Shown: positions 3 through 62,393, counted from the first letter of the stretch. The stretch is 64,000 nt of DNA from Anaerolineae bacterium (GCA_049299095.1 JBAQWV010000143.1:25000-88999), one strand, 5' to 3'. The notes: generated by a model not told the origin, from the letters alone. Numbers and translations are program-made.

Positions 3-716
3 GCGGAGCTGGCCTTAGCCGAGCGGCAGCAACTCGGCGGCGACCTGGATCGCCTGCTGGTGGCGCTGGACGATGGCCCGCTGCTGCTGTGGATGCCGCA
101 ACGCTTGACCGACGTGCAGCAGGAGCGCCGCGTTGAAGAGTTTTCCCGCCCGCTGCGTGAGCTGCGCCAGGTGCAAGCTGTGCCGTTGGGCTATATTGAC
201 CGGCCCCGCAGCGCCAATATCCTGCGCCTGCTGCAACTGGCCGATCTGGCGCTGGAGGAGATTACCACACAGGTGTTGCGCAGCAACCGTTACCGCGGCC
301 TGTCGGACCGTCTGCTGTTCAATCGGTTGCTCGGCCCCGGCCAGCGCAGCAGCCTGTTCGCGGCTACGTCAGAGATCAACCAGACCTATGCCAAAGAGGG
401 CAACCGCATCTGCTTCTGCTATCTGAACGTGGCCGCGCCGGATGCTACGCAGCCGCGCGTCGTGCGCGTGGAAGTGCCTGACTGGGCCGCGCGCGACGAA
501 GACCGGCTCGACACGGCGCTGGCAGCGGTGTGGCAGGATGCGCGCCTGACCGGCTATCCCTATGTGCTGGCGCGCGCGCATGAGCTGGCCGTGGTCAGTC
601 GCCACGAGCGCGCCGCACTGGAGCAGATGATGCAGATCGAGATGATGCGCCAGGGCTTGACAGGCGATATTTCCGCCAAGCAACAGAACAAGAACGATGT
701 CAGTGGACGCCGCTGA
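3..716 (+). CDS. Hypothetical protein, 5'-truncated by window edge; first gene of a co-directional three-gene cassette ending in a HerA-like ATPase
   Basis: The frame of ORF 60..716 stays open back to nt 3 with no stop (AELALAERQQLGGDLDRLL...). An 8-nt gap separates it from the next gene. No recognisable motif; role as a NurA-like partner is speculation. Confidence 0.4.
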   Translation, partial: AELALAERQQLGGDLDRLLVALDDGPLLLWMPQRLTDVQQERRVEEFSRPLRELRQVQAVPLGYIDRPRSANILRLLQLADLALEEITTQVLRSNRYRGLSDRLLFNRLLGPGQRSSLFAATSEINQTYAKEGNRICFCYLNVAAPDATQPRVVRVEVPDWAARDEDRLDTALAAVWQDARLTGYPYVLARAHELAVVSRHERAALEQMMQIEMMRQGLTGDISAKQQNKNDVSGRR

Positions 717-724
717 GGTGAAGC

Positions 725-1327
725 ATGGAAACAAGCGTTGAACCAACTCAACTGGGCCGTGTACTGCGTTCGGCCACAGCCAGCTTTACGGTGGGCTGCC
801 GCACGTCGGAGGCCGGTGTGCCACGCTTTGGCGCACTGGTGCGCGTCGAAGCGCCCAACCGCGGCGCAATTTATGGCTTGATCTACGATGTGCGCGTGGA
901 TGATGACCCCTTTGTGCGGCAATTGCTGGCCGCGGGCGATCTGACGCCGGAGTACGTCGAGGATCAACGCGCACGGCGGCAAGTGCCGGTCGAGGTGAAT
1001 GTCGTGGTGGTGGGCGGCCAGGACGCCGCGGGCCGCATCTTTCGCTATCTGCCGCCGCAGCCCCCCGCCACGCTGAGCTGGGTGACGCTGGCTGCGACGG
1101 ACGAGATCAAGGCTTTTGGCGCGCGGCTGGACTTTCTGCCCACACTGCTGAACGCCTTTGAAGCACCGGGCGACGAACTGGCCCCGGCCGCGTTGCGGCA
1201 AATGGCCGCGGCGCAGGGGGATGCGGAGGAAGCACAACGCTATTTGGTGGCCGCGGGCCGCGAGTTGGCGCGCCTGCTTAGCCGCGACCCTGCGCGCCTG
1301 AACGCGATCCTGCAACGGCTGCGGTGA
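725..1327 (+). CDS. Hypothetical small protein (200 aa) with a possible HAS-barrel-like N-terminal beta segment
   Basis: ATG at 725 preceded by GAGGTGA RBS. The segment LGRVLRSATASFTVGC...FGALVRVEA...AIYGLIYDV resembles the N-terminal barrel of the downstream ATPase (LGMVVAGSLSKGLDV...GSYVVVRG). Sits 25 nt upstream of the HerA-like gene. Confidence 0.4.
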   Translation: METSVEPTQLGRVLRSATASFTVGCRTSEAGVPRFGALVRVEAPNRGAIYGLIYDVRVDDDPFVRQLLAAGDLTPEYVEDQRARRQVPVEVNVVVVGGQDAAGRIFRYLPPQPPATLSWVTLAATDEIKAFGARLDFLPTLLNAFEAPGDELAPAALRQMAAAQGDAEEAQRYLVAAGRELARLLSRDPARLNAILQRLR

Positions 1328-1352
1328 GGAAAAATCAAAGTGGAGACCCGCC

Positions 1353-3140
1353 ATGAATGATCTGAACGCTACGCCTCTTAGTACAGATGCAGAATTCGAT
1401 GCGTTGCCCAGCGCCAGCCAGGCGCGCGGCCTTGACCCCGACACAGCCCGCTATCCCCTGGGCATGGTCGTGGCCGGTTCACTCTCCAAAGGGCTGGATG
1501 TGCGCCTCGCCCGCGAGATCAACACCGAAGATCAGGCTGTGGGCAGCTACGTGGTGGTGCGCGGCGCGGGCAAGCGCTTTTTCAGCATGATTACCGATGT
1601 GCTGCTGGGTGCGGCCAGTGACGAGGTCACGCTAAACCCGCCTGACCTGTCCGATCCCTTCCTACGCGAGATTCACCAGGGTACCAGCACTTTTGGCCTG
1701 CTGCACCTTAGCCCCATGCTGACGCTGGATGCCGAGGCGGGGGGCGAGCCGCAGCCGGTGAAGACCGTGCCGGGGCACTTCAGCCCGGTGCGCGCGGCCA
1801 GTCAAGCGGAGGTAAGCGAGGTATTCGGCGAGGAAGGCCACGACGCGGCGCGCAAAACCCACTTCTTTCATGTGGGCAATCCGCTGGACATGGCTGATGT
1901 CAAGGTGACGCTCAGCCTGGAGCGGCTGGTGGAGCGCTCATCCGGCGTGTTTGGCAAAAGCGGAACCGGCAAGACCTTCCTGAGCCGCCTGCTGCTGGCC
2001 GGCATTATTCGCGAGCGCGTGGCCGTGAACCTGATCTTTGACATGCACAATGAATATGGCTGGGAGGGTAGCAGCGAAGGCGTCACCAGCAAGGTGAAGG
2101 GGTTGAAGCAGATTTTCCCCGACGGCCGCGTCAGCATCTTCACGCTGGACGACGAATCGAGCCGACGCCGCGGCTCTAATCCCGACTATACCGTCACCAT
2201 CGGTCTCGATCAGGTGGAGCCGGACGATGTGGAGATGTTGCAGGGCATCCTCAACCTGAGCGAGCCGCAGTTGGGCGCGATCTTCGCCCTGCACCGCTAT
2301 CTGCGCCGCGACTGGCTGGCGAACTTCCTCGACGACACCTGGTTGGACAACCAGCAAGCCTTCGATCCTGACACCGGCAAAGAAAAATCGGGCTTGCAGG
2401 TGCTGGCCGAGGAGACGGGCCAGCCCTTCCAGACGCTGGCCGCGCTGCGCCGCCGGCTGCTGCAATTTGAGCGCTACGGCTTCCTCAAGCCGCACGCCGT
2501 GGACGATTCGGTGGAGCGCCTGCTGCGCTATCTGGACGCGGGCACCAACGTAGTGCTGGAGTTTGGCCGCTACGGCAACAGCCTGGACGCCTATATTTTT
2601 GTGGCGAATTTCCTTACGCGGCGGCTGCATCAAAAGTACGTAGAGAAGAAGGAGAACGCCTTCGGCAACAAGGCCGAGGAGCCTAAGCCGCTGGTGATTA
2701 CCATCGAGGAGGCGCACAAGTTCCTGGACCCGGCGATTGCCGGCCACACGATCTTCGGCACAATTGCGCGCGAGCTGCGCAAGTACAACGTCACGCTATT
2801 CATCGTGGATCAACGCCCCAGCCAGATTGACCCTGAGGTGATGAGCCAGATCGGCACGCGCGTCACTGCGCTGCTGGACGAGGAGAACGACATCCGCGCG
2901 GTGCTGATGGGGGTGAGCGGAGCAGCCGGGCTGAAGGAGGTGCTGGCGCGGCTGGACACGCGGCAACAGGCGTTGATCCTGGGCCACGCCGTGCCGATGC
3001 CCGTGGTGGTGCAGACGCGTTCCTACGATCTGACCTTCTACAAGGCGATGGGCCATGTGGACGATGCCGAGTTGCCCGCGCGGCTGGCTGAAAACGTCAT
3101 GAAGATGCGTGGCGAGGAAGGCTTCGAGGGCTTCGATTAA
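1353..3140 (+). CDS. HerA/FtsK-class (DUF87-type) P-loop ATPase with N-terminal HAS-barrel
   Basis: Walker A FGKSGTGKTFLSRLL. HerA-type EEAH-containing Walker B region PLVITIEEAHKFL. Arg-finger/sensor block RKYNVTLFIVDQRPSQIDPEV typical of HerA/VirB4/FtsK. N-terminal barrel-like region. GGAG RBS 8 nt upstream of ATG 1353. TAA stop at 3138-3140. Confidence 0.65.
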   Translation: MNDLNATPLSTDAEFDALPSASQARGLDPDTARYPLGMVVAGSLSKGLDVRLAREINTEDQAVGSYVVVRGAGKRFFSMITDVLLGAASDEVTLNPPDLSDPFLREIHQGTSTFGLLHLSPMLTLDAEAGGEPQPVKTVPGHFSPVRAASQAEVSEVFGEEGHDAARKTHFFHVGNPLDMADVKVTLSLERLVERSSGVFGKSGTGKTFLSRLLLAGIIRERVAVNLIFDMHNEYGWEGSSEGVTSKVKGLKQIFPDGRVSIFTLDDESSRRRGSNPDYTVTIGLDQVEPDDVEMLQGILNLSEPQLGAIFALHRYLRRDWLANFLDDTWLDNQQAFDPDTGKEKSGLQVLAEETGQPFQTLAALRRRLLQFERYGFLKPHAVDDSVERLLRYLDAGTNVVLEFGRYGNSLDAYIFVANFLTRRLHQKYVEKKENAFGNKAEEPKPLVITIEEAHKFLDPAIAGHTIFGTIARELRKYNVTLFIVDQRPSQIDPEVMSQIGTRVTALLDEENDIRAVLMGVSGAAGLKEVLARLDTRQQALILGHAVPMPVVVQTRSYDLTFYKAMGHVDDAELPARLAENVMKMRGEEGFEGFD

Positions 3141-3282
3141 ACCAGTTTGGGGGTATTTGAAAAGCCATAATCAGTGGTTCGACAGCGTACAGCGCCACCG
3201 ATGGTAGCTTGCACGCTGCGGGCTGTCAAGTCGCGCAGGCTGTGAACATTTGTCCGCGCTGCGGCGTGCAATGCAATGAACC

Positions 3283-3314
3283 TGCCCGCGCGGGCAAATG
3301 TCGTTTTGTTTTGC
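3283..3314 (+). terminator. Putative intrinsic terminator after the HerA-like cassette
   Basis: GC palindrome tgcccgcgcgggca followed by the T-rich tract aatgtcgttttgttttg. Confidence 0.35.
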
Positions 3315-3340
3315 TGGATATTCAAGCCTATGGGTGTCCT

Positions 3341-5272
3341 ATGACCACTGATCATAACAAACGTTTATTGTATCTGTTCCTCGCCATCGCTCTGGTCGCA
3401 CTGACGGCGCTGACCGGCTGGGCTGGCTATAGGTTGTTCAGCCGTGCGCTGGGACCGGCCGTCACCACCACCCCATCCCCTGCGGTGGTGACGGTGATCG
3501 TGGTCGCCACCCCCACCCAGCCGATCCCCTCTCCCACGCCGACACCCCTCTCGACCGTCACCACCATTGCCACCATGCCAACGGTCGCAACCGTGACGGC
3601 GTCCACACCGACTGCCGCGTTGAGCGTGATCGTCACGGCCGATCTGGCGAATCTGCGCAGCGCACCGGACATTGGTGCGCCAGTGCTGGGGGCCGCGCCC
3701 AAAGGCACACTCTTGCAGCCGCAAGGCCGTACGGCTGACAACCAATGGCTGCAGGTGTGCTGTGTCTCCAATCAGTGGGGCTGGATCACCAACCATTCCG
3801 ACCTGGTAACGTTGAATTTCCAGCCCGGCCTGCTGCCGGTGGTGCAATTCCCCACACCCGCGCCACAGCCACAGCCGACCCATACGCCCCCGCCTACGTG
3901 GACGCCCGCGCCACAGCCGACCCGCACGCCCTTGCCTACGTGGACGCCCGCGCCGCAGCCGACCCGCACGCCCCTGCCCACGTGGACGCCCGTGCCGCCC
4001 GCGGCCACAGCCACTTCCACACCGCCCACCGACTTCTGGCGAGGCGAGTACTTCAACAACCTCACGCTGCAAGGTCCACCGGTGTTGACACGACACGACG
4101 CGGCCCTCACTTTTAGCTGGGGAACAGGCAGCCCCGCGCCCGGCGTGGTCTCCGCGGATAACTTCAGCGCGCGCTGGACGCGCTGGCTGGTCATGCCGCG
4201 CAGCGATACCGTGCGCTTCGCAGTACGCGTAGACGATGGCGTGCGCATCAAGCTGGATGGCGCGCTGATCCTCGATGCCTGGCGCGACAGCGCACAGGCT
4301 GAATACGCGGTGGAACGACCAGTGTCAGCCGGCTCGCATCTCGTGGAGGTAGAGTATTACGAGCGCAACGGGCAGGCCGAGATCAATTTCGGCTGGATGC
4401 CGGTCGCGCCATCCCCAACAGCCAGCAGCACCCCCACGACGACCGCGACCGCTACGCGCACGCCAACGTCCTCCCCCACCGGCACACGCACGCCAACGGC
4501 GACGCCGACGACCACAGTCACCGGCAGCCCCACGTCAACAGCGACGCCGACGCCGACCGTGACGACAATGCCTACTATCGTTGTGCCGCCGTCGGAACCA
4601 ACCGCCACGCCCACCGCCACCAACACGCCAGCCACCACGGCTACGAGCACATCAACGGCTACCACTGCTGCCACAGCCACGAGTACGTCAACACCGACGT
4701 TTACGGCTACCAGCACAGCGACTGCCACAGCGACGGCCACGCGCACACCAACGCCCACACCGCTCACTGCGACCCCGACGGCCACATCCGCGCCGCCCAC
4801 CGCCACGCCCTCTGCCACCAGTGAACCGGCAGCGACGCCCACACCCACGATCACACCATTGCCACCCACCCCGACCGCCACGGCGACGCCTGCGTTGCAG
4901 CCGTCGTTGGTGATCTCACCGACCACCGGCTGGGCGGGCACAGTGGTGCAGGTGACGGGCGCCAACTGGCTGCCGAATGACCGGGTGACACTCACAGTCA
5001 CACAGCCGCGCAGCCGCGGGCTGGAGTTTGCGCGCGCGCGCCTCCGCGTGCGTACCGACCGACAGGGCCGCTTCACCGCCACCCTGACCATGCCGCCGCA
5101 AGTGGCGCAGCCCGGTGCCACCGCAGTATGGATCGTCGGCACGGGCAGCCGCAGCACGCGCGCCACCGCAGTCTTTACGTTGACGCCGCCCTCGGATGCA
5201 ACGCCGGTCGGCGCGCCGACGGTGATCACCCCGGCCACGGACAGCACACCACCGCCGGACAGCAACCCATAG
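3341..5272 (+). CDS. Secreted or membrane-anchored protein with SH3b-like and PA14 domains and long Pro/Thr-rich linkers
   Basis: Start trimmed to the in-frame ATG at 3341 (MTTDHNKRLLYLFLAIALVALTAL, signal/TM). SH3b-like segment LANLRSAPDIGAPVLGAAPKGTLLQP. PA14-like block FWRGEYFNNLTLQGPP...DDGVRIKLDG...VEVEYYERNGQAEINFGW. Extensive T/P/A-rich low-complexity regions. Confidence 0.55.
   Translation: MTTDHNKRLLYLFLAIALVALTALTGWAGYRLFSRALGPAVTTTPSPAVVTVIVVATPTQPIPSPTPTPLSTVTTIATMPTVATVTASTPTAALSVIVTADLANLRSAPDIGAPVLGAAPKGTLLQPQGRTADNQWLQVCCVSNQWGWITNHSDLVTLNFQPGLLPVVQFPTPAPQPQPTHTPPPTWTPAPQPTRTPLPTWTPAPQPTRTPLPTWTPVPPAATATSTPPTDFWRGEYFNNLTLQGPPVLTRHDAALTFSWGTGSPAPGVVSADNFSARWTRWLVMPRSDTVRFAVRVDDGVRIKLDGALILDAWRDSAQAEYAVERPVSAGSHLVEVEYYERNGQAEINFGWMPVAPSPTASSTPTTTATATRTPTSSPTGTRTPTATPTTTVTGSPTSTATPTPTVTTMPTIVVPPSEPTATPTATNTPATTATSTSTATTAATATSTSTPTFTATSTATATATATRTPTPTPLTATPTATSAPPTATPSATSEPAATPTPTITPLPPTPTATATPALQPSLVISPTTGWAGTVVQVTGANWLPNDRVTLTVTQPRSRGLEFARARLRVRTDRQGRFTATLTMPPQVAQPGATAVWIVGTGSRSTRATAVFTLTPPSDATPVGAPTVITPATDSTPPPDSNP
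3869..3994 (+). repeat. Three tandem copies of a 42-nt coding repeat (PQPT-TPLPTWTPA) inside the PA14 protein gene
   Basis: Near-identical 42-nt units ccacagccgacccgcacgcccttgcctacgtggacgcccgcg at 3869-3910, 3911-3952 and 3953-3994. Confidence 0.8.
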
Positions 5273-5293: not shown

Positions 5294-5335
5294 AAGAATT
5301 CGGCAGCGGCTCAATCGCTGCCGAATTCTTGATTT
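5294..5335 (+). terminator. Intrinsic terminator hairpin with GAATTCGG-core palindrome after the PA14 gene
   Basis: Perfect 15-bp inverted repeat aagaattcggcagcg / cgctgccgaattctt with 7-nt loop, followed by gattttg. Confidence 0.6.
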
Positions 5336-6509: not shown

Positions 6510-7634
6510 ATGAGCAATGACATCATTCAGGCGCAATACGACACGCTAAACGCAGTGGCGCGGCGCTTCGGCGACCAGGCGGAGGCGAGCAGCCAGATGC
6601 TGGCTGGGGTGCGTCGCGCCATGCAGCCACTGCAAGCCGGTGCGTGGCAGGGTCGCGGCTCCACAGCGTTTTTCAACGAAATGACTGGTGAGTTGTTGCC
6701 CGCGTTGAATCGCCTCGTAGCCGCGCTGCAACAGGCACAAACCGTTACTACTGATATTGCCCGTCTCGTGCGCGCAGCCGAGGAAGAGGCTGCACAGCCC
6801 TTCCGGGGTGGCGAGAACGCAGGCAGCGATGCCGGAACCGCAGCAGGCGCTGACACGGCGCCGATACAAACGCTGCTGCCAACACCGCTGCCGACCAACC
6901 AGATCTTTGCCGATTCCTACATGGATGGTCTGGTGGGTTTGCAAGTACAGGGAGCCAACACCGCCCAACTGAACAGCGCGATGGAGACGCTGGCTGGCAC
7001 CCCCACGCCCGAGCAGGTAAACCAGGCGCTGGATCAGATCGCCCAGGCGCGCGGCGTGCCGCGTGCCGAGATCGAGGCGCAATACCAGCGTTACCTAGCC
7101 CTGCGCGACGAAGCTGCGCGCATCGCCGCGGCCAAGGGCATGGATCAGGTTCCCGCGGCCAGCCAGTTCCTGCACGATGACTTCATGGGCAGTACCACAC
7201 AACTGCGCTACGGCAAGGTCGTGGGCGACGCGCTGGGCATTGACCCGGTGTTCGGTGCGCTACTCAACCCCACTGGCGGGCTGGTCGGCCCCGGCAACGC
7301 GGCCGTTGACCTGGGCGATAGCGCACTGGGTTATCACGGCGTGGTGCATGACGCCGCCGGCTACCTCTACAACTACCACAACATGGGACCAGGCTATGAC
7401 TATCTGGGCCTGGAAGGGCGCGATACCAGCAGTCCATTGACCGGCCAGCAGGCTGGCATCCAGTATTGGACAAACAACATCAACGCGGGCTTTGTGGAAT
7501 CAACCCTGTCGAATACCGGCGGCACGTTGCTCGGTGTAGCGGAAGATGTAAAAACCGGCGTCACCCAAACAATAGACGCTATCAGTGATGGCGTTGAGAG
7601 CGTCCGTGACTGGTTTGGCGATTTATTTGACTGA
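6510..7634 (+). CDS. WXG100/LXG-like N-terminal domain fused to a C-terminal domain of unknown function (polymorphic toxin-like)
   Basis: First ~100 aa is a helical WXG100-type domain with W-x-G (LQAGAWQGRGSTAFFNEM). Followed by an A/G/T/P-rich linker and a ~250-aa C-terminal domain with no recognisable motif. ATG 6510, TGA 7632-7634. Confidence 0.55.
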   Translation: MSNDIIQAQYDTLNAVARRFGDQAEASSQMLAGVRRAMQPLQAGAWQGRGSTAFFNEMTGELLPALNRLVAALQQAQTVTTDIARLVRAAEEEAAQPFRGGENAGSDAGTAAGADTAPIQTLLPTPLPTNQIFADSYMDGLVGLQVQGANTAQLNSAMETLAGTPTPEQVNQALDQIAQARGVPRAEIEAQYQRYLALRDEAARIAAAKGMDQVPAASQFLHDDFMGSTTQLRYGKVVGDALGIDPVFGALLNPTGGLVGPGNAAVDLGDSALGYHGVVHDAAGYLYNYHNMGPGYDYLGLEGRDTSSPLTGQQAGIQYWTNNINAGFVESTLSNTGGTLLGVAEDVKTGVTQTIDAISDGVESVRDWFGDLFD

Positions 7635-7644
7635 GAGGTGTTGC

Positions 7645-8409
7645 ATGACGATTCCCTGTGCCATTTCATACCCTGTCACCCTCTCACCGGCACAACTGGC
7701 TTACCTGCTTTCGCTCACTGGTATTCAAGATTTGGTGGGCCTGGCCGATGAAGGCCTCTTTCCCAGAAACGGCGACCATTGGGAACGGCTTTTTCTGCAC
7801 GGCCGCGCCGAATTGGAGCGTGACCAGTGGTTGTATCAACCGCCCAACAGTGCCCGCACAGCCATCAATCAGGAGTTGCTGACAGTAGTGACCACGATGG
7901 CTGCGCCGGACGCAGTGCTGGTGACCACACTCAACCGTCCTGGCCTGCCCAGCCAAAGCGTCACCCATTATATTTCAACCTTTGTCGTGGAAGCGTGCTA
8001 CGATGGCCTGTACTACCGGATGGCTGCCTTGTCATCACCGGAAGTAATGCTGATGCGGCTGGCAAGCACCTTGGGTCTGCCCTCACAGCAGCCCGCGCTG
8101 GACGAATTCGTGCTGTCCAATGAGAGTGCGCGGCAGGCTGTGGCCGATCCGGCGCCGGAACACCTGGCCCGGCTGGGCGTGCCCAGCAGCAGTATACAGC
8201 TTTTCGCCCGCGCCCTCGATGCGGGTCGGCGTGCCAAGGTGCAGGTGATGCGACTGCGTTACGGCCAGGTGCAGGCAGTTCACCGCGTGCGCGCCCTGTT
8301 CGCCAGTGAATCCTCGGCCTGGCTGGCTTTGCCTGCTGATGGCGCGCGCGTACGCATGGTGCCCGCGTACGCGGGCGGTCTGGCCGAACAGGTGCAAGCC
8401 TTGCTATAA
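7645..8409 (+). CDS. Hypothetical protein immediately downstream of the WXG-toxin gene (candidate immunity protein)
   Basis: In-frame ATG at 7645, 10 nt after the toxin stop (ORF track start 7585 overlaps the upstream gene). No recognisable motif. Position matches the toxin-immunity pair convention. Confidence 0.4.
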   Translation: MTIPCAISYPVTLSPAQLAYLLSLTGIQDLVGLADEGLFPRNGDHWERLFLHGRAELERDQWLYQPPNSARTAINQELLTVVTTMAAPDAVLVTTLNRPGLPSQSVTHYISTFVVEACYDGLYYRMAALSSPEVMLMRLASTLGLPSQQPALDEFVLSNESARQAVADPAPEHLARLGVPSSSIQLFARALDAGRRAKVQVMRLRYGQVQAVHRVRALFASESSAWLALPADGARVRMVPAYAGGLAEQVQALL

Positions 8410-8425
8410 TAGGGGAGAACTACTT

Positions 8426-8863
8426 GTGAATAAACAGTTCCGTCATCGCTTTCTGTCTGGTACAACGTTTCCCATAGTTCTGGTCTTCGTCCTCGCCGTT
8501 TTTGTGCTCACCTCTTGCAATGCCATGAACGCCAACCGCTTACATATTCGCATCCAAAATACCAGCTCCTCTGACATCAGCGACTTTTGGCTGGGTGCAG
8601 GCTCCGGTGCAGGCGGGCCAGGCAGCCGTTCGTTCGGGGCCATTGCCAGCGGCGCAACTACGCCCTATCGCGCGCTAAAAGCCGAATTCGGCTTGTACAG
8701 CAACTATAATTTCCTGACCACAGAGGGCCAGCGCTTCATCGGCACAACCTTCCCCAACGAGCTGTTCGGCAAGGTTGAGCTGGAGCCAGGCTATTACACC
8801 TTTGTCGTTTCCACCAGCGGAGACGCCACCAGCCTTGAGATTGTGACCGATCCAGCGCCTTAA
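8426..8863 (+). CDS. Small lipoprotein, hypothetical
   Basis: GTG at 8426 preceded by AGGGGAG RBS. Signal peptide with lipobox-like VLTSC. Remainder beta-rich, Ser/Thr-rich. Confidence 0.45.
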   Translation: MNKQFRHRFLSGTTFPIVLVFVLAVFVLTSCNAMNANRLHIRIQNTSSSDISDFWLGAGSGAGGPGSRSFGAIASGATTPYRALKAEFGLYSNYNFLTTEGQRFIGTTFPNELFGKVELEPGYYTFVVSTSGDATSLEIVTDPAP

Positions 8864-8887
8864 TCGCTGACTTGCGGTCAGCAATGG

Positions 8888-8992
8888 GGCTATTCCCTGC
8901 TTGCCAGCTAATCGGTGATGTGTACAATGAAAGCAGCCAGCCAGGCGGGCTGGCTGTAGTGCCAACACATGCTGAAAAGCAGGGAATAGTCC
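8888..8992 (+). promoter_or_regulatory. Structured 5' leader whose outer stem pairs the RBS of the VWA-FHA gene
   Basis: Outer 15-nt arms ggctattccctgctt (8888-8902) and aagcagggaatagtc (8977-8991) with 14/15 complementarity. They enclose a perfect 9-bp hairpin gcagccagcc/ggctggctg (8933-8956). The 3' arm contains the AGGGA Shine-Dalgarno 3 nt before ATG 8994. Confidence 0.4.
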
Positions 8993-8993
8993 A

Positions 8994-11135
8994 ATGACTA
9001 AGAGGATATTAGCCGGTTTGGGCGCGCTGTTTGTGCTGTTCTTTGTGGCCGCGTTCGCGGTTTCCGCACAAGCGCCTGTTTCTCCGCAAGTAATTAGCAC
9101 CGTTGCGCATCCGGGGGCCGAAGGGCTGGGGTTGGATGTTTATTTTGTCGTGACAGACGGCGATGGGCAACCAGTACTGGATGCCAACCTGGAAGAAGCC
9201 ACGATCCAGGTCGTCGGCAGCGCCAGCGCGCCGATTCCGGCCACCATTAGCACCCCACAAAGCACCATCTATGTCGTCCTGCTGCTCGACGTCAGCGGCA
9301 GTATGCAGAATATTATCGGTCAGGTGCGCGCGGCCGCGCTGTCTGCACTACAAACATTACCCGCCAATGCCCGCGTGTCGGTCATCGCCTTTAGCGACCA
9401 AATCAGTGTCGTCACCGACTTTACCGGGGACTTTATCACCGTACAACAGCGAATTCAGCAGATCGGCGTTGCTCCTGGCGCGCCGACCTGCCTGTACGAT
9501 GCCGTGTGGGACGTAATTGATCGTCTGGACATTGCCGCAACGGAGCCACAAGACCGCCGCGCGCTGATCCTTTTCACCGATGGCCGCGACGAAAAGGGCA
9601 ACGGGCAAGCATGCAGTATTCACACGTTGCAAGATGTCGTTCAAAAGGCACAACGCCAGCCCGCCACACCCATTCATACCATCGGCTTGTGCGGTGCGAC
9701 ATGCGCCAACCTGAACGTCACAGAATTGAGCGAAATCGCCAGCGCCACGCGCGGTTTTGCTGTAACTGGTGGGCAGACTGACCTGGAAGATATGTTCCAG
9801 GCGATCATGGACGGACTGAACGCCCAACTGGTCGCGCGGGCCGTGGTGTATCCCCGGCAGGGTACGGGGCAGGCTGTGCTGGCCGTACGGCCACACGATC
9901 TGAATGCCTTTGTGACCACGATGTTCAACTTTCGTTCTGACAAGGATTATGCCGAGCCACTGCCGCCGGTGGCTGTGCGCGTGACAGAACTGACCTTCCT
10001 GCCTGACAACAATACCTATCAGGTGGGTCTGGGCATCGGCAATCCGCAATCAGCAGACCGTCTGATCGTGAGTATTGAGGAAACCGAAGGCGGCAAGACG
10101 GTACTCAAGGGTTTGGAGATCAACGTCGAAGGCCGCGCTGCACTGCAAACAGACTTGCCCGCGGCCAACCTGACCGCGGGCCGTAAATACACCATCAAAT
10201 TTCAGGCCGTGGATGTCGCAAACAACTTCCTTACACTTCCTGAAGGCGCCGACGCCTGTTCCGATGACCCGACCGTCCTCGGCTGTAAAGAGTTCACACA
10301 CGAGCCGCCCGTTGCCCCCGGCTGCGAATTCGCGGTTCAGTCCGTTGCTTCGGACTACACCAATCAAGTACTGCGCTTCGATTTGGTGATGCCCAAACAG
10401 TGCAACGATGTGTTCTATCAGGGGGTGATCGTCCAAAAGGACACCGGCCAAAAGGTGCAGGACATCGGCCGCGGCACTTTCTTTGCTGCACAGGGCACCA
10501 ACCAGATCAATATTCCCATGCCTGTGCGGCTGTTACAACTGAAGAAAAAAGACCCTGTGCCGGAATTGGCGATGACCCTCACGCTGGAAACGCGCGAGAG
10601 TAAGCAAACCACGTTGGCCTATGAGTTCGTGCCCGATCGCCGCCCCCCCGTGCCTTTGACGGAATTTTTGCGACGCAATATCATGTTTTTGGTCGGTGGC
10701 CTGGCTATTGTAGTGTTGTACTTTCTATATCACACTTGGCAGTCACAACAGGCAGAAAAGCAGAAACGCGAGCAGGTGCGCCCGCCCATCGAATCCACCA
10801 CCAAGCCTGTTAATTTTGAAACGCCAGCCATGCGCTTGAAGCTACACATTCTATCCACCCCTGATCCCCAAAACCGGCGCGATCTGGTTGTAAGCCAATT
10901 CCCCTTCGTAATTGGCCGCAAGGAAGGCAACCTTATTATCCGGGATCAGAAAGTGTCTGGCAAGCACGCTCAAATCACCATCAACGGCAATGAATTCTTT
11001 ATTGAAGACCTGGGCAGCACCAACCACACCTACCTCGCGGGCAAGCCCCTGGTGCCGCACAGCCCACAGCGCCTGCCCAGCAAGCTGAAAGTGCGCCTCG
11101 GCCCCGACACCGAAATCGAAATCGAAACCATCTAA
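8994..11135 (+). CDS. Membrane protein with extracytoplasmic VWA domain and cytoplasmic C-terminal FHA domain
   Basis: Signal peptide [48 protein letters not shown] ... [13 protein letters not shown]. Single [20 protein letters not shown]-terminal FHA signature [49 protein letters not shown]. Confidence 0.7.
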
Positions 11136-11149
11136 CCCCAGGAGCATCT

Positions 11150-12190
11150 ATGTCCCCGCTACGTCTCGGCTTGAACATTGGCTATTCCGGCGCGCAGATC
11201 GAACTACCGCTTAACCTCGTGCAGGAAGCAGATCGGCTCGGCTTCTTCGCGGTGTGGGCCGCAGAATCTTACGGCTCCGACGCCGTAACGCCGCTGGCGT
11301 GGCTGGGCGCGCGCACCGAGCGCATCCACCTGGGCACAGCCATCATGCAGATGCCCGGCCGCACTCCGGCCAACACCGCCATGACCGCCATCACACTCGA
11401 CCAGCTTTCCGGCGGACGCATGTTGCTGGGGCTGGGACTATCCGGCCCGCAAGTGGTGGAAGGCTGGCACGGCGAAGCCTACGGCAAGCCGCTTGGCAAA
11501 ACGCGCGAATACATCCACATTGTGCGCACCATCCTGGCGCGCCAGCAGCCGCTGGTGCATCAGGGCGAGCATTACCAGGTTCCCTACACCGGTGCCGACG
11601 CCACCGGCCTCGGTAAGCCCCTCAAGAGCATCATTCATGGCCGCGCCGATTTGCCGATCTATCTGGCCGCGATTGGCCCAAAAAACGTGGAACTGGCCGC
11701 AGAAGTCGCCGACGGCTGGCTGCCGGTCTTTTTCTCCCCCGAACACTACGACGCAGTGTACAAGCCGCAGATCGAAGCGGGCTTCGCGCGCGCGGGCAAC
11801 GGCAAAAGCATTGAGCAGTTCGACATCGCGGCTACTGTGCCCGTGGTGATCGGCGACGACGTGGACGCGTGCCGGGCCGCGGTCAAGCCCTTCCTCGCGC
11901 TGTATGTGGGCGGGATGGGTGCCAAGGGCAAGAATTTCTATCACGACCTGGCCTGCCGCTACGGCTTTGCCGAGGCCGCCGACGCCATTCAGGACGCGTA
12001 CCTGGCCGGACGCAAGGGCGAGGCGATTGTAGCCGTACCCGACGAGATGGTGGACGCCGTTGCACTGTGCGGCCCGAAAGAACGCATCCGCGAGCGGCTG
12101 GCGTTGTGGCGAAACAGCCCTGTCACCACGCTCAACATCGCGGATCCCAATCCGCTTAATGTGCGGGTGATGGCCGAGCTGGTGCTATAG
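11150..12190 (+). CDS. LLM-class (luciferase-like) F420-dependent oxidoreductase family protein
   Basis: [11 protein letters not shown]...[75 protein letters not shown] is characteristic of the TIGR03559-like LLM family. AGGAG RBS. Confidence 0.7.
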
Positions 12191-19723: not shown

Positions 19724-19825
19724 CCGGTTCAGCCCGACTCGTTGGCCCTTCGATACCGACGGCTTGTCCGGTAGCTGGTGTCGTTCACTGCCAACCCATC
19801 GGTTGAATGAAACGACCATGCTAGT

Positions 19826-19858
19826 AAAAAGCCTCTGCCACCCTGCAGAGGCTTTTTA
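19826..19858 (+). terminator. Intrinsic (bidirectional-looking) terminator after the ferredoxin pair
   Basis: aaaaa gcctctgc caccc tgcagaggc ttttt: 8-bp GC stem flanked by A-run and T-run. Confidence 0.7.
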
Positions 19859-19900
19859 CTACGCATATCAAGAAAAGCAACGACAAAAGGAGACCCGCCG

Positions 19901-22093: not shown

Positions 22094-22124
22094 CTCTCAG
22101 AGGCTGTTTCGAAAATCGAAATTT

Positions 22125-22170
22125 GAATTCGGAAAAGGTAACGTGTCCGTATCACCAGCCATTTCCGAAT
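22125..22170. repeat. Short palindromic element with 11-bp terminal inverted repeats (GAATTCGGAAA core)
   Basis: gaattcggaaa (22125-22135) ... tttccgaattc (22160-22170). Same core as the elements at 62308-62393 and 5294-5330. Confidence 0.5.
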
Positions 22171-22338
22171 TCTTCTTTCGTTCCAACAGCCCTTTATTTG
22201 CTAAAGTCTGATCCTCTGTAAGACTTAGGAAGCACCAATACTGAAATCGCCCGCGAAATCCTGTATTCTATACATGGATTGAGATGAGGCGTTAGGTGAG
22301 CTTCCGAGGATGTGGACGATAGTGGGTGTGTGGAGTTG

Positions 22339-51004: not shown

Positions 51005-51022
51005 AGCCCGCCTTCTTCGATA

Positions 51023-51060
51023 AAAAAAGTCCCTGCGCTCATGGCAGGGACTTTTTTTTA
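51023..51060. terminator. Bidirectional intrinsic terminator between the convergent cyt c gene and the minus-strand gene
   Basis: aaaaaa agtccctgc gctcat ggcagggact ttttttt. Confidence 0.75.
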
Positions 51061-56814: not shown

Positions 56815-56823
56815 CAGACTCTA

Positions 56824-56888
56824 CCACCAAGACACAAGGACACAAAGCAATTATTTCTTTCTGATCTTTGTGCCTTGGTGTCTTTGTG
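56824..56888. repeat. Imperfect palindrome built from CACAAAG-type units (24-nt arms, 17-nt loop)
   Basis: ccaccaagacacaaggacacaaag ... ctttgtgccttggtgtctttgtgg. Arms complementary at 20/24 positions. A related element lies at 61622-61690. Confidence 0.55.
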
Positions 56889-56908
56889 GTAAAGTTTGCT
56901 ATGAAACA

Positions 56909-62307: not shown

Positions 62308-62393
62308 AGAATTCGGAAGTGCCTGCACATCTCAAGAACCGGTTAGCATCTCACAGCGATACTTATGACACAATCTGAGCCACTTCCGAATTC
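62308..62393. repeat. Palindromic element with 13-bp terminal inverted repeats (GAATTCGGAAGTG core) in the divergent DUF123/argH spacer
   Basis: gaattcggaagtg (62308-62320) ... cacttccgaattc (62381-62393), perfect, flanking 60 nt. Same core as the 22125-22170 element. Confidence 0.5.

Follow-up and report, generated by a model that had tools for sequence, protein, structure and literature searches.

The stretch of Anaerolineae bacterium DNA analyzed here (GCA_049299095.1 JBAQWV010000143.1:25000-88999; 64,000 nucleotides (nt), hereafter the window) carries a gene for a 713-amino-acid (aa) membrane protein combining a putatively extracytoplasmic VWA domain, a single transmembrane (TM) helix and a putatively cytoplasmic FHA domain. 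This VWA-FHA gene directly follows a three-gene block headed by a WXG100 protein, and the region before its start codon is enclosed by the longest inverted repeat in the window (Table 1). Comparison with related loci suggests that the protein belongs to a Chloroflexota family associated with type VII secretion system (T7SS)-like genes and phosphothreonine (pThr) signaling, and that the repeat, which a preliminary description of this DNA had read as a regulatory RNA leader, probably straddles a promoter.

Both domains of the protein are recognized by Pfam with E-values of 2e-14: VWA/VWA_2 at aa 94-258, above the cut-off (PF13519, 54.4 bits against a cut-off of 27; PF00092, 53.3 bits against 23.8), and FHA at aa 639-703 (PF00498, 54.1 bits against 20.7). 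Hydropathy shows an N-terminal hydrophobic stretch ending in AQA before a proline and a single further one at ~aa 563-590. An AlphaFold2 (AF2) model built from 28 family members, with a mean predicted local distance difference test score (pLDDT) of 82, comprises a helix (3-22), a beta-sandwich (30-86), the VWA domain (92-276) and further beta-sandwich domains (279-545), followed by the TM helix (563-590), a disordered linker and the FHA domain (615-712). The VWA region (pLDDT ~85-93) adopts a Rossmann-like alpha/beta VWA fold, for which a Foldseek search of PDB retrieved ArnB, ITIH1, anthrax-toxin receptors (ANTXR2) and BatB, with target template-modeling scores of 0.7-0.75 to the ANTXR, integrin I and BatB VWA domains; the C-terminus matched the ArnA FHA domain (5a8i, 32 % identity).

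The metal ion-dependent adhesion site (MIDAS) residues D99, S101, S103, T165 and D196 are unchanged in 28/28 family members, as are the FHA pThr-binding residues G641, R642 and H658; N677 is found in 27/28, and position 655 is S or T. The predicted ectodomain contains all eight cysteines, of which the less conserved are retained or lost in similar numbers, a pattern that fits disulfides outside the cell. In the linker, where pLDDT falls below 50 around aa 596-603, R596, P597 and P598 are invariant and T603 is threonine in 27/28 members and serine in one, making T603 a candidate phospho-acceptor for an FHA/kinase module. Pfam, hydropathy, the AF2 model and conservation thus bear out the 713-aa VWA(out)-TM-FHA(in) architecture with intact MIDAS of the preliminary description, and we regard this topology as well supported, though not proven.

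The TM-FHA part of the protein lies nearest, among NCBIfam models, to the FhaB/FipA equivalog NF049868 (55 bits against a cut-off of 125) and to TIGR03354, the TagH/Fha family of type VI secretion systems (T6SS) (31.2 bits against 120), and these sub-threshold scores indicate membership in neither. The named T7SS membrane components (EssA/EssB/EsaA and EccB/D/E) showed no profile homology to it; only VWA, FHA and YscD-cytoplasmic profiles matched. Homologues, 76 in number, keep the full architecture down to ~30 % identity, and a genome scan confirmed 174 relatives, the best 80 of which all come from Chloroflexota lineages save one unclassified metagenome-assembled genome. Relatives occur in Anaerolineae, Caldilineales, Ardenticatenaceae, Chloroflexales and Herpetosiphonaceae. 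Within the searches run, the VWA-TM-FHA family appears to be almost only in Chloroflexota, where it is widespread and uncharacterized, and the literature searched yielded no description of a VWA-TM-FHA component.

Gene neighborhoods tie this family to WXG100 proteins and to phosphorylation enzymes. All ORFs (open reading frames) within ±6 kb were clustered all-vs-all, and domains were counted with hidden Markov models (HMMs) built from Pfam-verified seeds, the denominator being the 74 loci with a VWA+FHA protein. WXG100 genes are present in 60/74 loci, typically four of ~100 aa plus one WXG100-headed gene of 300-375 aa. Pkinase proteins occur in 57/74, one of ~355 aa plus others of 430-900 aa with SH3_3, CBM9 or M14 ectodomains; PP2C phosphatases occur in 15/74, and an EssC-like multi-FtsK (FtsK/SpoIIIE) ATPase lies within 6 kb in 8/74. 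Pfam checks on representatives agree with these assignments. In orthologues at 54-86 % identity, moreover, the upstream block is syntenic: a long WXG100-headed gene, a ~255-aa gene and a ~112-150-aa gene precede the VWA-FHA gene. The functional link to the WXG100 group proposed in the preliminary description is strengthened by this synteny and by the WXG100 count, and its suggestion of coupling to pThr signaling fits the frequency of Ser/Thr kinases and PP2C around the family.

In some loci the family occurs with a paralogue. By all-vs-all clustering, ~12 loci have beside the first protein another of ~655-760 aa that is more divergent and falls in its homology cluster; the stricter VWA+FHA HMM count gives at least two copies in 4/74 loci, and Pfam recognizes VWA or FHA in only part of the second copies (L069 both domains, L009 FHA plus a weak VWA_3, L077 nothing). 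In these three loci (L009 8142-11927, L069 8264-13154, L077 8170-11377) the second copy, here of ~655-675 aa, is followed by a kinase and/or a PP2C phosphatase, and the arrangement suggests that the two proteins may work as a pair. In Oscillochloris sp. ZM17-4 (L077) the locus encodes a multi-FtsK ATPase of 1658 aa, a small protein of 225 aa, the VWA-FHA protein, a protein of 655 aa from the VWA-FHA homology cluster, and a kinase; neither the 225-aa nor the 655-aa protein has a Pfam match. A small FHA protein follows the ATPase in L069, and the 225-aa protein of L077 is its counterpart from the same cluster. In the only EssC-like ATPase that was scanned at full length, that of L077, Pfam found no FHA domain; nor did it find one in that of L069, whose ORF begins at a contig end. 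The conserved plan that emerges comprises an EssC-like ATPase, one or more small FHA proteins, one or two VWA-TM-FHA proteins, a WXG100 array, membrane Ser/Thr kinases and PP2C.

These associations suggest that the VWA-FHA protein may be a membrane scaffold or sensor of a Chloroflexota T7SS-like secretion/antagonism apparatus. Its VWA/MIDAS ectodomain would bind an extracellular or cell-envelope ligand, and its FHA domain would dock on pThr sites, phosphorylated by the co-encoded kinases and dephosphorylated by PP2C; the conserved RPPVxxT motif in its own linker or in that of a paralogue is one candidate site. Such a module would play a part comparable to that of the Thr-phosphorylation pathway in type VI secretion. 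The family would thereby represent a variant of phosphorylation-gated secretion, extending a recurring theme in which secretion systems are gated by Thr phosphorylation, and the locus plan offers a testable candidate for how a third phylum builds and regulates a T7SS-like machine.

Nearly all understanding of type VII secretion comes from Actinomycetota and Bacillota. For Chloroflexota, our text searches found only the statements that T7SS-type toxin neighborhoods exist there (PMC3482391) and that the phylum has "a smaller number" of WXG100 sequences (PMC10765036). In Bacillota/Actinomycetota, Garrett et al. (2024) described novel T7SS subtypes whose loci encode kinases and PPM phosphatases along with FHA proteins and the cytoplasmic vWA protein TscE, and for these subtypes the analogy to T6SS phosphorylation has already been drawn (PMC11217815). 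As at the loci examined here, T7SSc-j loci combine T7SS genes with membrane Ser/Thr kinases (TscD/TsdD), a phosphatase (the PPM protein TscF), FHA proteins (TseJ/TsfJ) and a vWA protein (TscE). Unlike the VWA-FHA protein, however, TscE is predicted to be cytoplasmic, without signal peptide or TM segment; the T7SSc-j FHA proteins carry DUF6382, and that account covers neither a VWA(out)-TM-FHA(in) fusion nor Chloroflexota (PMC11217815). The preliminary description had also pointed to FHA domains in EssC/YukC-type T7SS components, which holds for EssC (PMC11217815) but not for YukC/EssB, a pseudokinase and not an FHA protein (PMC9600267).

The T6SS pathway (PpkA, Fha1/TagH, PppA) shares with the proposed module a VWA domain outside the cell, kinase/FHA/PP2C chemistry inside it, and genes placed within a secretion locus. 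In PpkA, the VWA domain is a periplasmic part of the kinase. Here, by contrast, the VWA ectodomain shares a chain with the FHA reader and not with a kinase, the kinases of VWA-FHA loci bear other ectodomains (SH3_3, CBM9, M14), and the locus context is WXG100/EssC-like rather than T6SS. The best structural matches to the two halves of the model, ArnB (8s05) and the ArnA FHA domain of Sulfolobus acidocaldarius, come from a two-protein FHA/vWA module that is under the control of Ser/Thr kinases and a phosphatase (PMC6509490, PMC7472852). In the ArnA/ArnB module the domains reside on different proteins, both cytoplasmic, which act in the regulation of archaellum expression, whereas here a single chain is split by the membrane.

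The inverted repeat before the gene has the geometry that the preliminary description gave it. Its arms (8888-8902 and 8977-8991) are Watson-Crick complementary at 14/15 positions, the remaining one being G·U, and they enclose a perfect 9-bp hairpin (8934-8942 with 8948-8956) extended by one G·U pair. RNAfold predicts an outer stem of 16 contiguous pairs (8887-8902 with 8977-8992), which is included in the minimum free energy (MFE) structure of 8860-9010 (-71.5 kcal/mol, z = -7.1, with 0/200 shuffles as stable). The extended 21/25 arm match was equaled as the window-wide maximum in 2/60 composition-preserving shuffles, so that the repeat is real and, on sequence alone, modestly beyond chance. 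As also described, the 3' arm covers an SD (Shine-Dalgarno)-like AGGGA; this lies at 8981-8985, 8 nt and not 3 nt before the ATG, while the arm itself ends 2 nt before it. A CAGGGA(A/T) motif is kept 8-12 nt before the ATG among orthologues.

What alters the reading of this repeat is a predicted sigma70-type promoter between its arms. We compared ten orthologous loci, at 99, 86, 68, 68, 59, 58, 57, 56, 55 and 54 % protein identity. Each of the ten leaders has a -35/-10 pair with 16-17-nt spacing, located 57-121 nt upstream of the ATG, and the only columns invariant over all ten are the CTT of the -35 and the TAnAAT of the -10. The sequence upstream of the -35, which in the window forms the 5' arm region, is unconserved save between the window and the 86 % relative (L082). 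Transcription is predicted from consensus and conservation to start near 8935; from this promoter the 5' arm would not be transcribed, and it probably lies upstream of the start and outside the primary transcript.

The pairing itself is confined to the window and L082. When the stretch from 70 nt ahead of the -35 to the end of that hexamer was tested for duplex formation with the 25-nt SD region, the arm-to-SD duplex reached -30.5 kcal/mol (z -6.9) in the window and -25.2 kcal/mol (z -4.6) in L082; it was not significant in the eight other orthologues at 54-68 % identity (z -2.0 to +1.0). RNAalifold found 0 consensus pairs over nine leaders, and in L082 the 5' arm has changed from TATT to TTAT, two changes with no compensating change. 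A scan of 8000-12000 against Rfam 15 at E up to 10 gave nothing relevant, only three chance-level matches to eukaryotic families (E at least 1.7), none of them in 8884-8995. A metagenome scan for more close leaders with the SD-region pattern GCAGGGAATAGYCCAATGAC produced three chance matches in unrelated contexts, leaving two informative lineages. Between those two, the leader is 88 % identical and third codon positions of the flanking genes are 60-65 % identical, which argues that the leader as a whole is constrained.

Transcribed from its own promoter, the VWA-FHA gene would have a primary 5' untranslated region (UTR) of ~59 nt whose first element is the 9-10-bp hairpin and in which the SD is roughly half accessible (P(unpaired) ~0.5 by partition-function folding). 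The 16-bp outer stem would form only on read-through RNA from the upstream WXG100 operon, and on RNA with both arms the SD is predicted to be fully buried (P(unpaired) 0.00-0.01) throughout 25-65 °C. Read-through is plausible given that the hairpin after the upstream stop codon lacks a T-run and that canonical T-run terminators are used elsewhere in the same genome, for example at 19822-19861 and 51022-51058; a terminator scan found no canonical terminator on the + strand between the upstream operon and the VWA-FHA gene. In L082 the hairpin after the upstream stop codon is replaced by one of different sequence.

This arrangement recalls IS10, for which Davis, Simons and Kleckner in 1985 reportedly found that the promoter starts between the arms and that only transcripts from outside form the helix masking the ribosome-binding site (RBS). 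Folding places the 3' arm over the RBS here as well; sequestration of the RBS in IS10 is cited in PMC13181058. Unlike the IS10 transposase, the VWA-FHA gene is chromosomal, its transcription start and read-through are predicted ones, and the feature is confined to one lineage. If the stem is functional, it would most plausibly be a lineage-specific fold-back insulator of the IS10 type that blocks translation of read-through RNA. A T7SS-linked VWA-FHA scaffold or sensor, preceded in this lineage by a fold-back leader with its promoter in the loop, is the explanation of the locus as a whole that we somewhat favor.

Several points weigh against that explanation. The window is without an EssC-like ATPase, small WXG100 genes, a kinase or PP2C, and the local evidence for a link to secretion is the WXG100-headed gene block only. 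Across the family the functional links are all guilt by association, with the ATPase in only 8/74 loci within 6 kb, and the topology is read from signal-peptide and hydropathy reasoning together with the cysteine pattern. On the RNA side, the transcription start is predicted from consensus and conservation, and a weak candidate promoter inside the end of the upstream coding sequence (CDS), TTGAGA-18-CTTAAT, could in principle yield a longer leader. The stem is missing in most orthologues; it is thus dispensable for the family and may be neutral.

We entertain, more tentatively, a further-reaching version of the same explanation. In that version the VWA-TM-FHA protein, often with its paralogue, would be the signature of an undescribed Chloroflexota T7SS-like subtype in which FHA domains are supplied in trans (they are supplied in cis in Bacillota EssC, which carries FHA domains; PMC11217815). 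Binding of a ligand or metal at the MIDAS would, via the kinases, PP2C and the RPPVxxT motif, gate the export of WXG100-headed effectors, and in the window lineage an IS10-style helix would additionally silence read-through. This is possible, though we would not call it probable.

Of the competing explanations, a neutral origin of the repeat survives best. The repeat could be a lineage-specific accident, for example a template-switch copy of the SD region inverted beside the -35, and this origin is nearly as likely as function, given the restriction of the repeat to a single lineage and its decay in L082. The 3' arm would then be ancestral, since the CAGGGAAT SD block is conserved in orthologues and the 5' arm region is otherwise unconserved; the 5' arm has already begun to decay in L082, uncompensated, and a 21/25 match arises as the window-wide maximum in ~3 % of shuffles. 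Yet the pairing has outlasted a divergence that left synonymous sites 60-65 % identical, at -25 kcal/mol (z -4.6) it is still strong in L082, and 14/17 arm positions are retained against ~10.5 expected neutrally, a difference not significant alone. Taken by itself, we judge a neutral accident rather unlikely but deserving of consideration.

For the protein, the alternative is a general adaptor in envelope or cell-cycle Ser/Thr signaling (FipA/FhaB type), or an adhesin, with no role in secretion. The mycobacterial FhaB/FipA protein Rv0019c likewise places a cytoplasmic FHA domain after a TM helix, and NF049868 aligns to aa 572-704 of the VWA-FHA protein. VWA ectodomains are common adhesion modules, and the window lineage retains the gene despite a lost kinase and C39 peptidase and with no secretion ATPase nearby. 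FipA itself has no large ectodomain and is encoded in the PknA/PknB cell-division operon. The FipA score, however, is far below its cut-off, and co-location with WXG100 genes, seen in 60/74 loci, spans deeply divergent Chloroflexota, down to ~30 % identity, which would be difficult to account for if the two were not functionally linked, leaving the adaptor or adhesin alternative improbable beside a scaffold or sensor of a T7SS-like apparatus.

The model of the preliminary description, in which the whole repeat is a 5' leader acting as a cis-regulatory RNA that opens the RBS on a signal (a translational riboregulator or thermosensor), has fared worse. It could draw on a stem that is real, unusually stable and placed over the SD, on purifying selection on the leader between the two closest lineages, and on the weak promoter-like candidate further upstream. 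Against it stand the conserved promoter between the arms, the lack of conservation or covariation past the 86 % relative, the uncompensated arm changes in L082, and the absence of any Rfam match to a cis-regulatory family even at the permissive cut-off used. Known RNA thermometers (ROSE, fourU) are weak, mismatched helices; the -30.5 kcal/mol helix here fails to melt in silico between 25 and 65 °C, keeping the SD buried, so a thermometer of ROSE or fourU type is implausible and was rejected. A conserved structured, riboswitch-like leader was rejected too, given 0 RNAalifold pairs and non-significant duplex z-scores in 8/10 leaders. The outer stem is probably not a ligand or temperature switch, and we consider the leader model as a whole very unlikely. 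The case carries a caution, in that a striking RBS-masking helix can straddle a promoter and so be no leader element at all. Least probable of all is a role of the repeat at the DNA level, as half-sites binding a regulator (by looping or occlusion) or as recombination sites of an invertible promoter: the arms do lie on either side of the -10 and extend into the -35, as would be expected of operators flanking a promoter or of an inverton, but the arm motif has no further copy within 64 kb, neither arm is itself palindromic, the enclosed 62-74 bp is very short for inversion, the orientation is the same in six independent assemblies (L001, L082-L086), and Pfam scans of neighboring genes revealed no recombinase or obvious local regulator.

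Other features of the leader region deserve mention. Start-proximal hairpins analogous to that of the window occur in L090, L092 and L004; the hairpin at the predicted start reads TGGCAGGC...GCCA in L090 and L092, with a weaker TGGAAGGC...GTCA variant in L004. In longer orthologous 5' UTRs (L089 1312-1389, L090 4880-5000, L092 4901-5000, L004 5900-6000) the CCAGGG(A/T)AT-like copy at the SD is preceded by another, and the motif may be a repeated binding site for a protein or the ribosome. The conserved CAGGGA fits the CsrA-type CARGGA, duplicated in some of the longer UTRs, but stands in the SD position. An upstream ORF of 37 codons (8884-8997), whose TGA overlaps the main ATG (ATGA), was rejected as coding and is probably non-coding: it persists in L082 with mostly non-synonymous codon changes (8, to 4 synonymous ones), has no SD, and is located upstream of the predicted transcription start. 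A reading of the inner hairpin as a minus-strand terminator was likewise rejected, as no minus-strand gene or promoter leads into it. The second-best inverted repeat of the window, also 21/25, lies at 56822-56891, with the predicted GTG start of a Peptidase_M24 gene (56870) overlapped by the 3' arm; this may be a further hairpin that masks a start, or the start may be mis-called.

Table 1. Features of the VWA-FHA locus, in window coordinates
Feature	Coordinates	Strand	Basis
WXG100-headed protein, 374 aa, C-terminal domain of unknown family; first gene of three-gene block	6510..7634	+	Pfam, TIGR03930
Cytoplasmic partner protein, 254 aa	7645..8409	+	Profile comparison, synteny
Predicted lipoprotein, 145 aa, lipobox L-T-S-C; last gene of upstream block	8426..8863	+	Translation, synteny
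6-bp hairpin after upstream stop codon, no T-run, non-canonical terminator	8867..8883	+	Folding, terminator scan
Inverted repeat 5' arm, core 8887-8902, overlaps -35 hexamer	8884..8908	+	RNAfold, inverted-repeat search
Predicted sigma70-type promoter, TTGCCA-16 nt-TACAAT	8901..8928	+	Consensus scan (10/12 match), conservation
GC-rich hairpin, 9-10 bp, predicted at very 5' end of primary transcript	8933..8957	+	Folding
Inverted repeat 3' arm, core 8977-8992, covers AGGGA, ends at ATG	8971..8995	+	RNAfold, inverted-repeat search
VWA-TM-FHA membrane protein, whole CDS	8994..11135	+	713 aa; Pfam and AF2
Predicted signal peptide / N-terminal anchor, aa 1-26, MTKR...SAQA-P	8994..9071	+	Hydropathy; A25, Q26 family-invariant
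Predicted extracytoplasmic VWA domain with MIDAS motif, aa 92-276	9267..9821	+	Pfam, AF2, Foldseek, residue conservation
Predicted extracytoplasmic beta-sandwich domains, aa 279-545, paired cysteines	9828..10628	+	AF2 secondary structure, Cys conservation
TM helix, aa 563-590	10680..10763	+	Hydropathy and AF2
Juxtamembrane motif R-P-P-[IVM]-x-x(x)-T, aa 596-603, disordered linker	10779..10802	+	Family conservation
Predicted cytoplasmic FHA domain, aa 615-712	10836..11129	+	Pfam, Foldseek, pThr-residue conservation

The first protein of the upstream block matches WXG100 in Pfam (E 1.5e-9) and TIGR03930 (63.7 bits against a cut-off of 44.85), and is 66 % identical to its L090 orthologue over its full length. 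Its C-terminal two-thirds, which have no Pfam match, are also 66 % identical to those of an orthologue whose VWA-FHA protein is only 56 % identical; by this comparison the C-terminal domain is conserved, not polymorphic, within the clade. The second, 254-aa protein had no direct Pfam match, and a PDB sequence search with it was empty. It aligns to the family of the 264-aa protein of L090 with an hhalign probability of 99 % (E 8.6e-18); that protein has a weak Pfam EspG match, as does one family member at E 0.028. The 254-aa protein, which had been described as an immunity protein, may instead be an EspG-like T7SS chaperone. Its AF2 model, from six sequences, was too poor for a fold search (pLDDT 55.5). 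PADLOC found no defense-system match for the four proteins of the cluster.

Downstream of the VWA-FHA gene, the clade gene order continues with a C39_2 peptidase in L002, L003, L004, L090 and L092, then with an SH3_3-bearing Ser/Thr kinase in L004, L090 and L092 and, in L004 and L092, a luciferase-like gene. In the window and L082 the luciferase-like gene comes directly after the VWA-FHA gene, with neither peptidase nor kinase. A clean 14-nt junction at 11136-11149 of the window stands against the peptidase/kinase region 7188-10264 of L092, indicating loss of the two genes in the same lineage that carries the inverted repeat. The preliminary description was right that no Ser/Thr kinase or phosphatase lies in the window: Pfam found no Pkinase or PP2C domain in its ~50 ORFs, and the sole match of a kinase tblastn search of the window was to the SH3_3 part of a PA14/SH3 protein. 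That protein, encoded at 3209-5272, has 687 aa with PA14 and SH3_3 domains, and its SH3_3 region is 28-35 % identical to the ectodomains of kinases flanking orthologous VWA-FHA genes.

The 5' end of the window (60-3140) encodes NurA and, at 1353-3140, HerA (DUF87/HAS-barrel), with a 200-aa ORF between the two genes. The product of the DUF87/HerA gene matches PADLOC HerA models; the gene pairs with NurA and does not encode an FtsK/EssC-type secretion ATPase. Finally, the octamer CCGAATTC occurs in 11 copies in the window against 1.7 expected. Its copies pair into three hairpins just 3' of genes (5294-5330, 22117-22180 and 62309-62393) and are also found at 8676-8697, which suggests a REP (repetitive extragenic palindromic)-like or shared terminator element.

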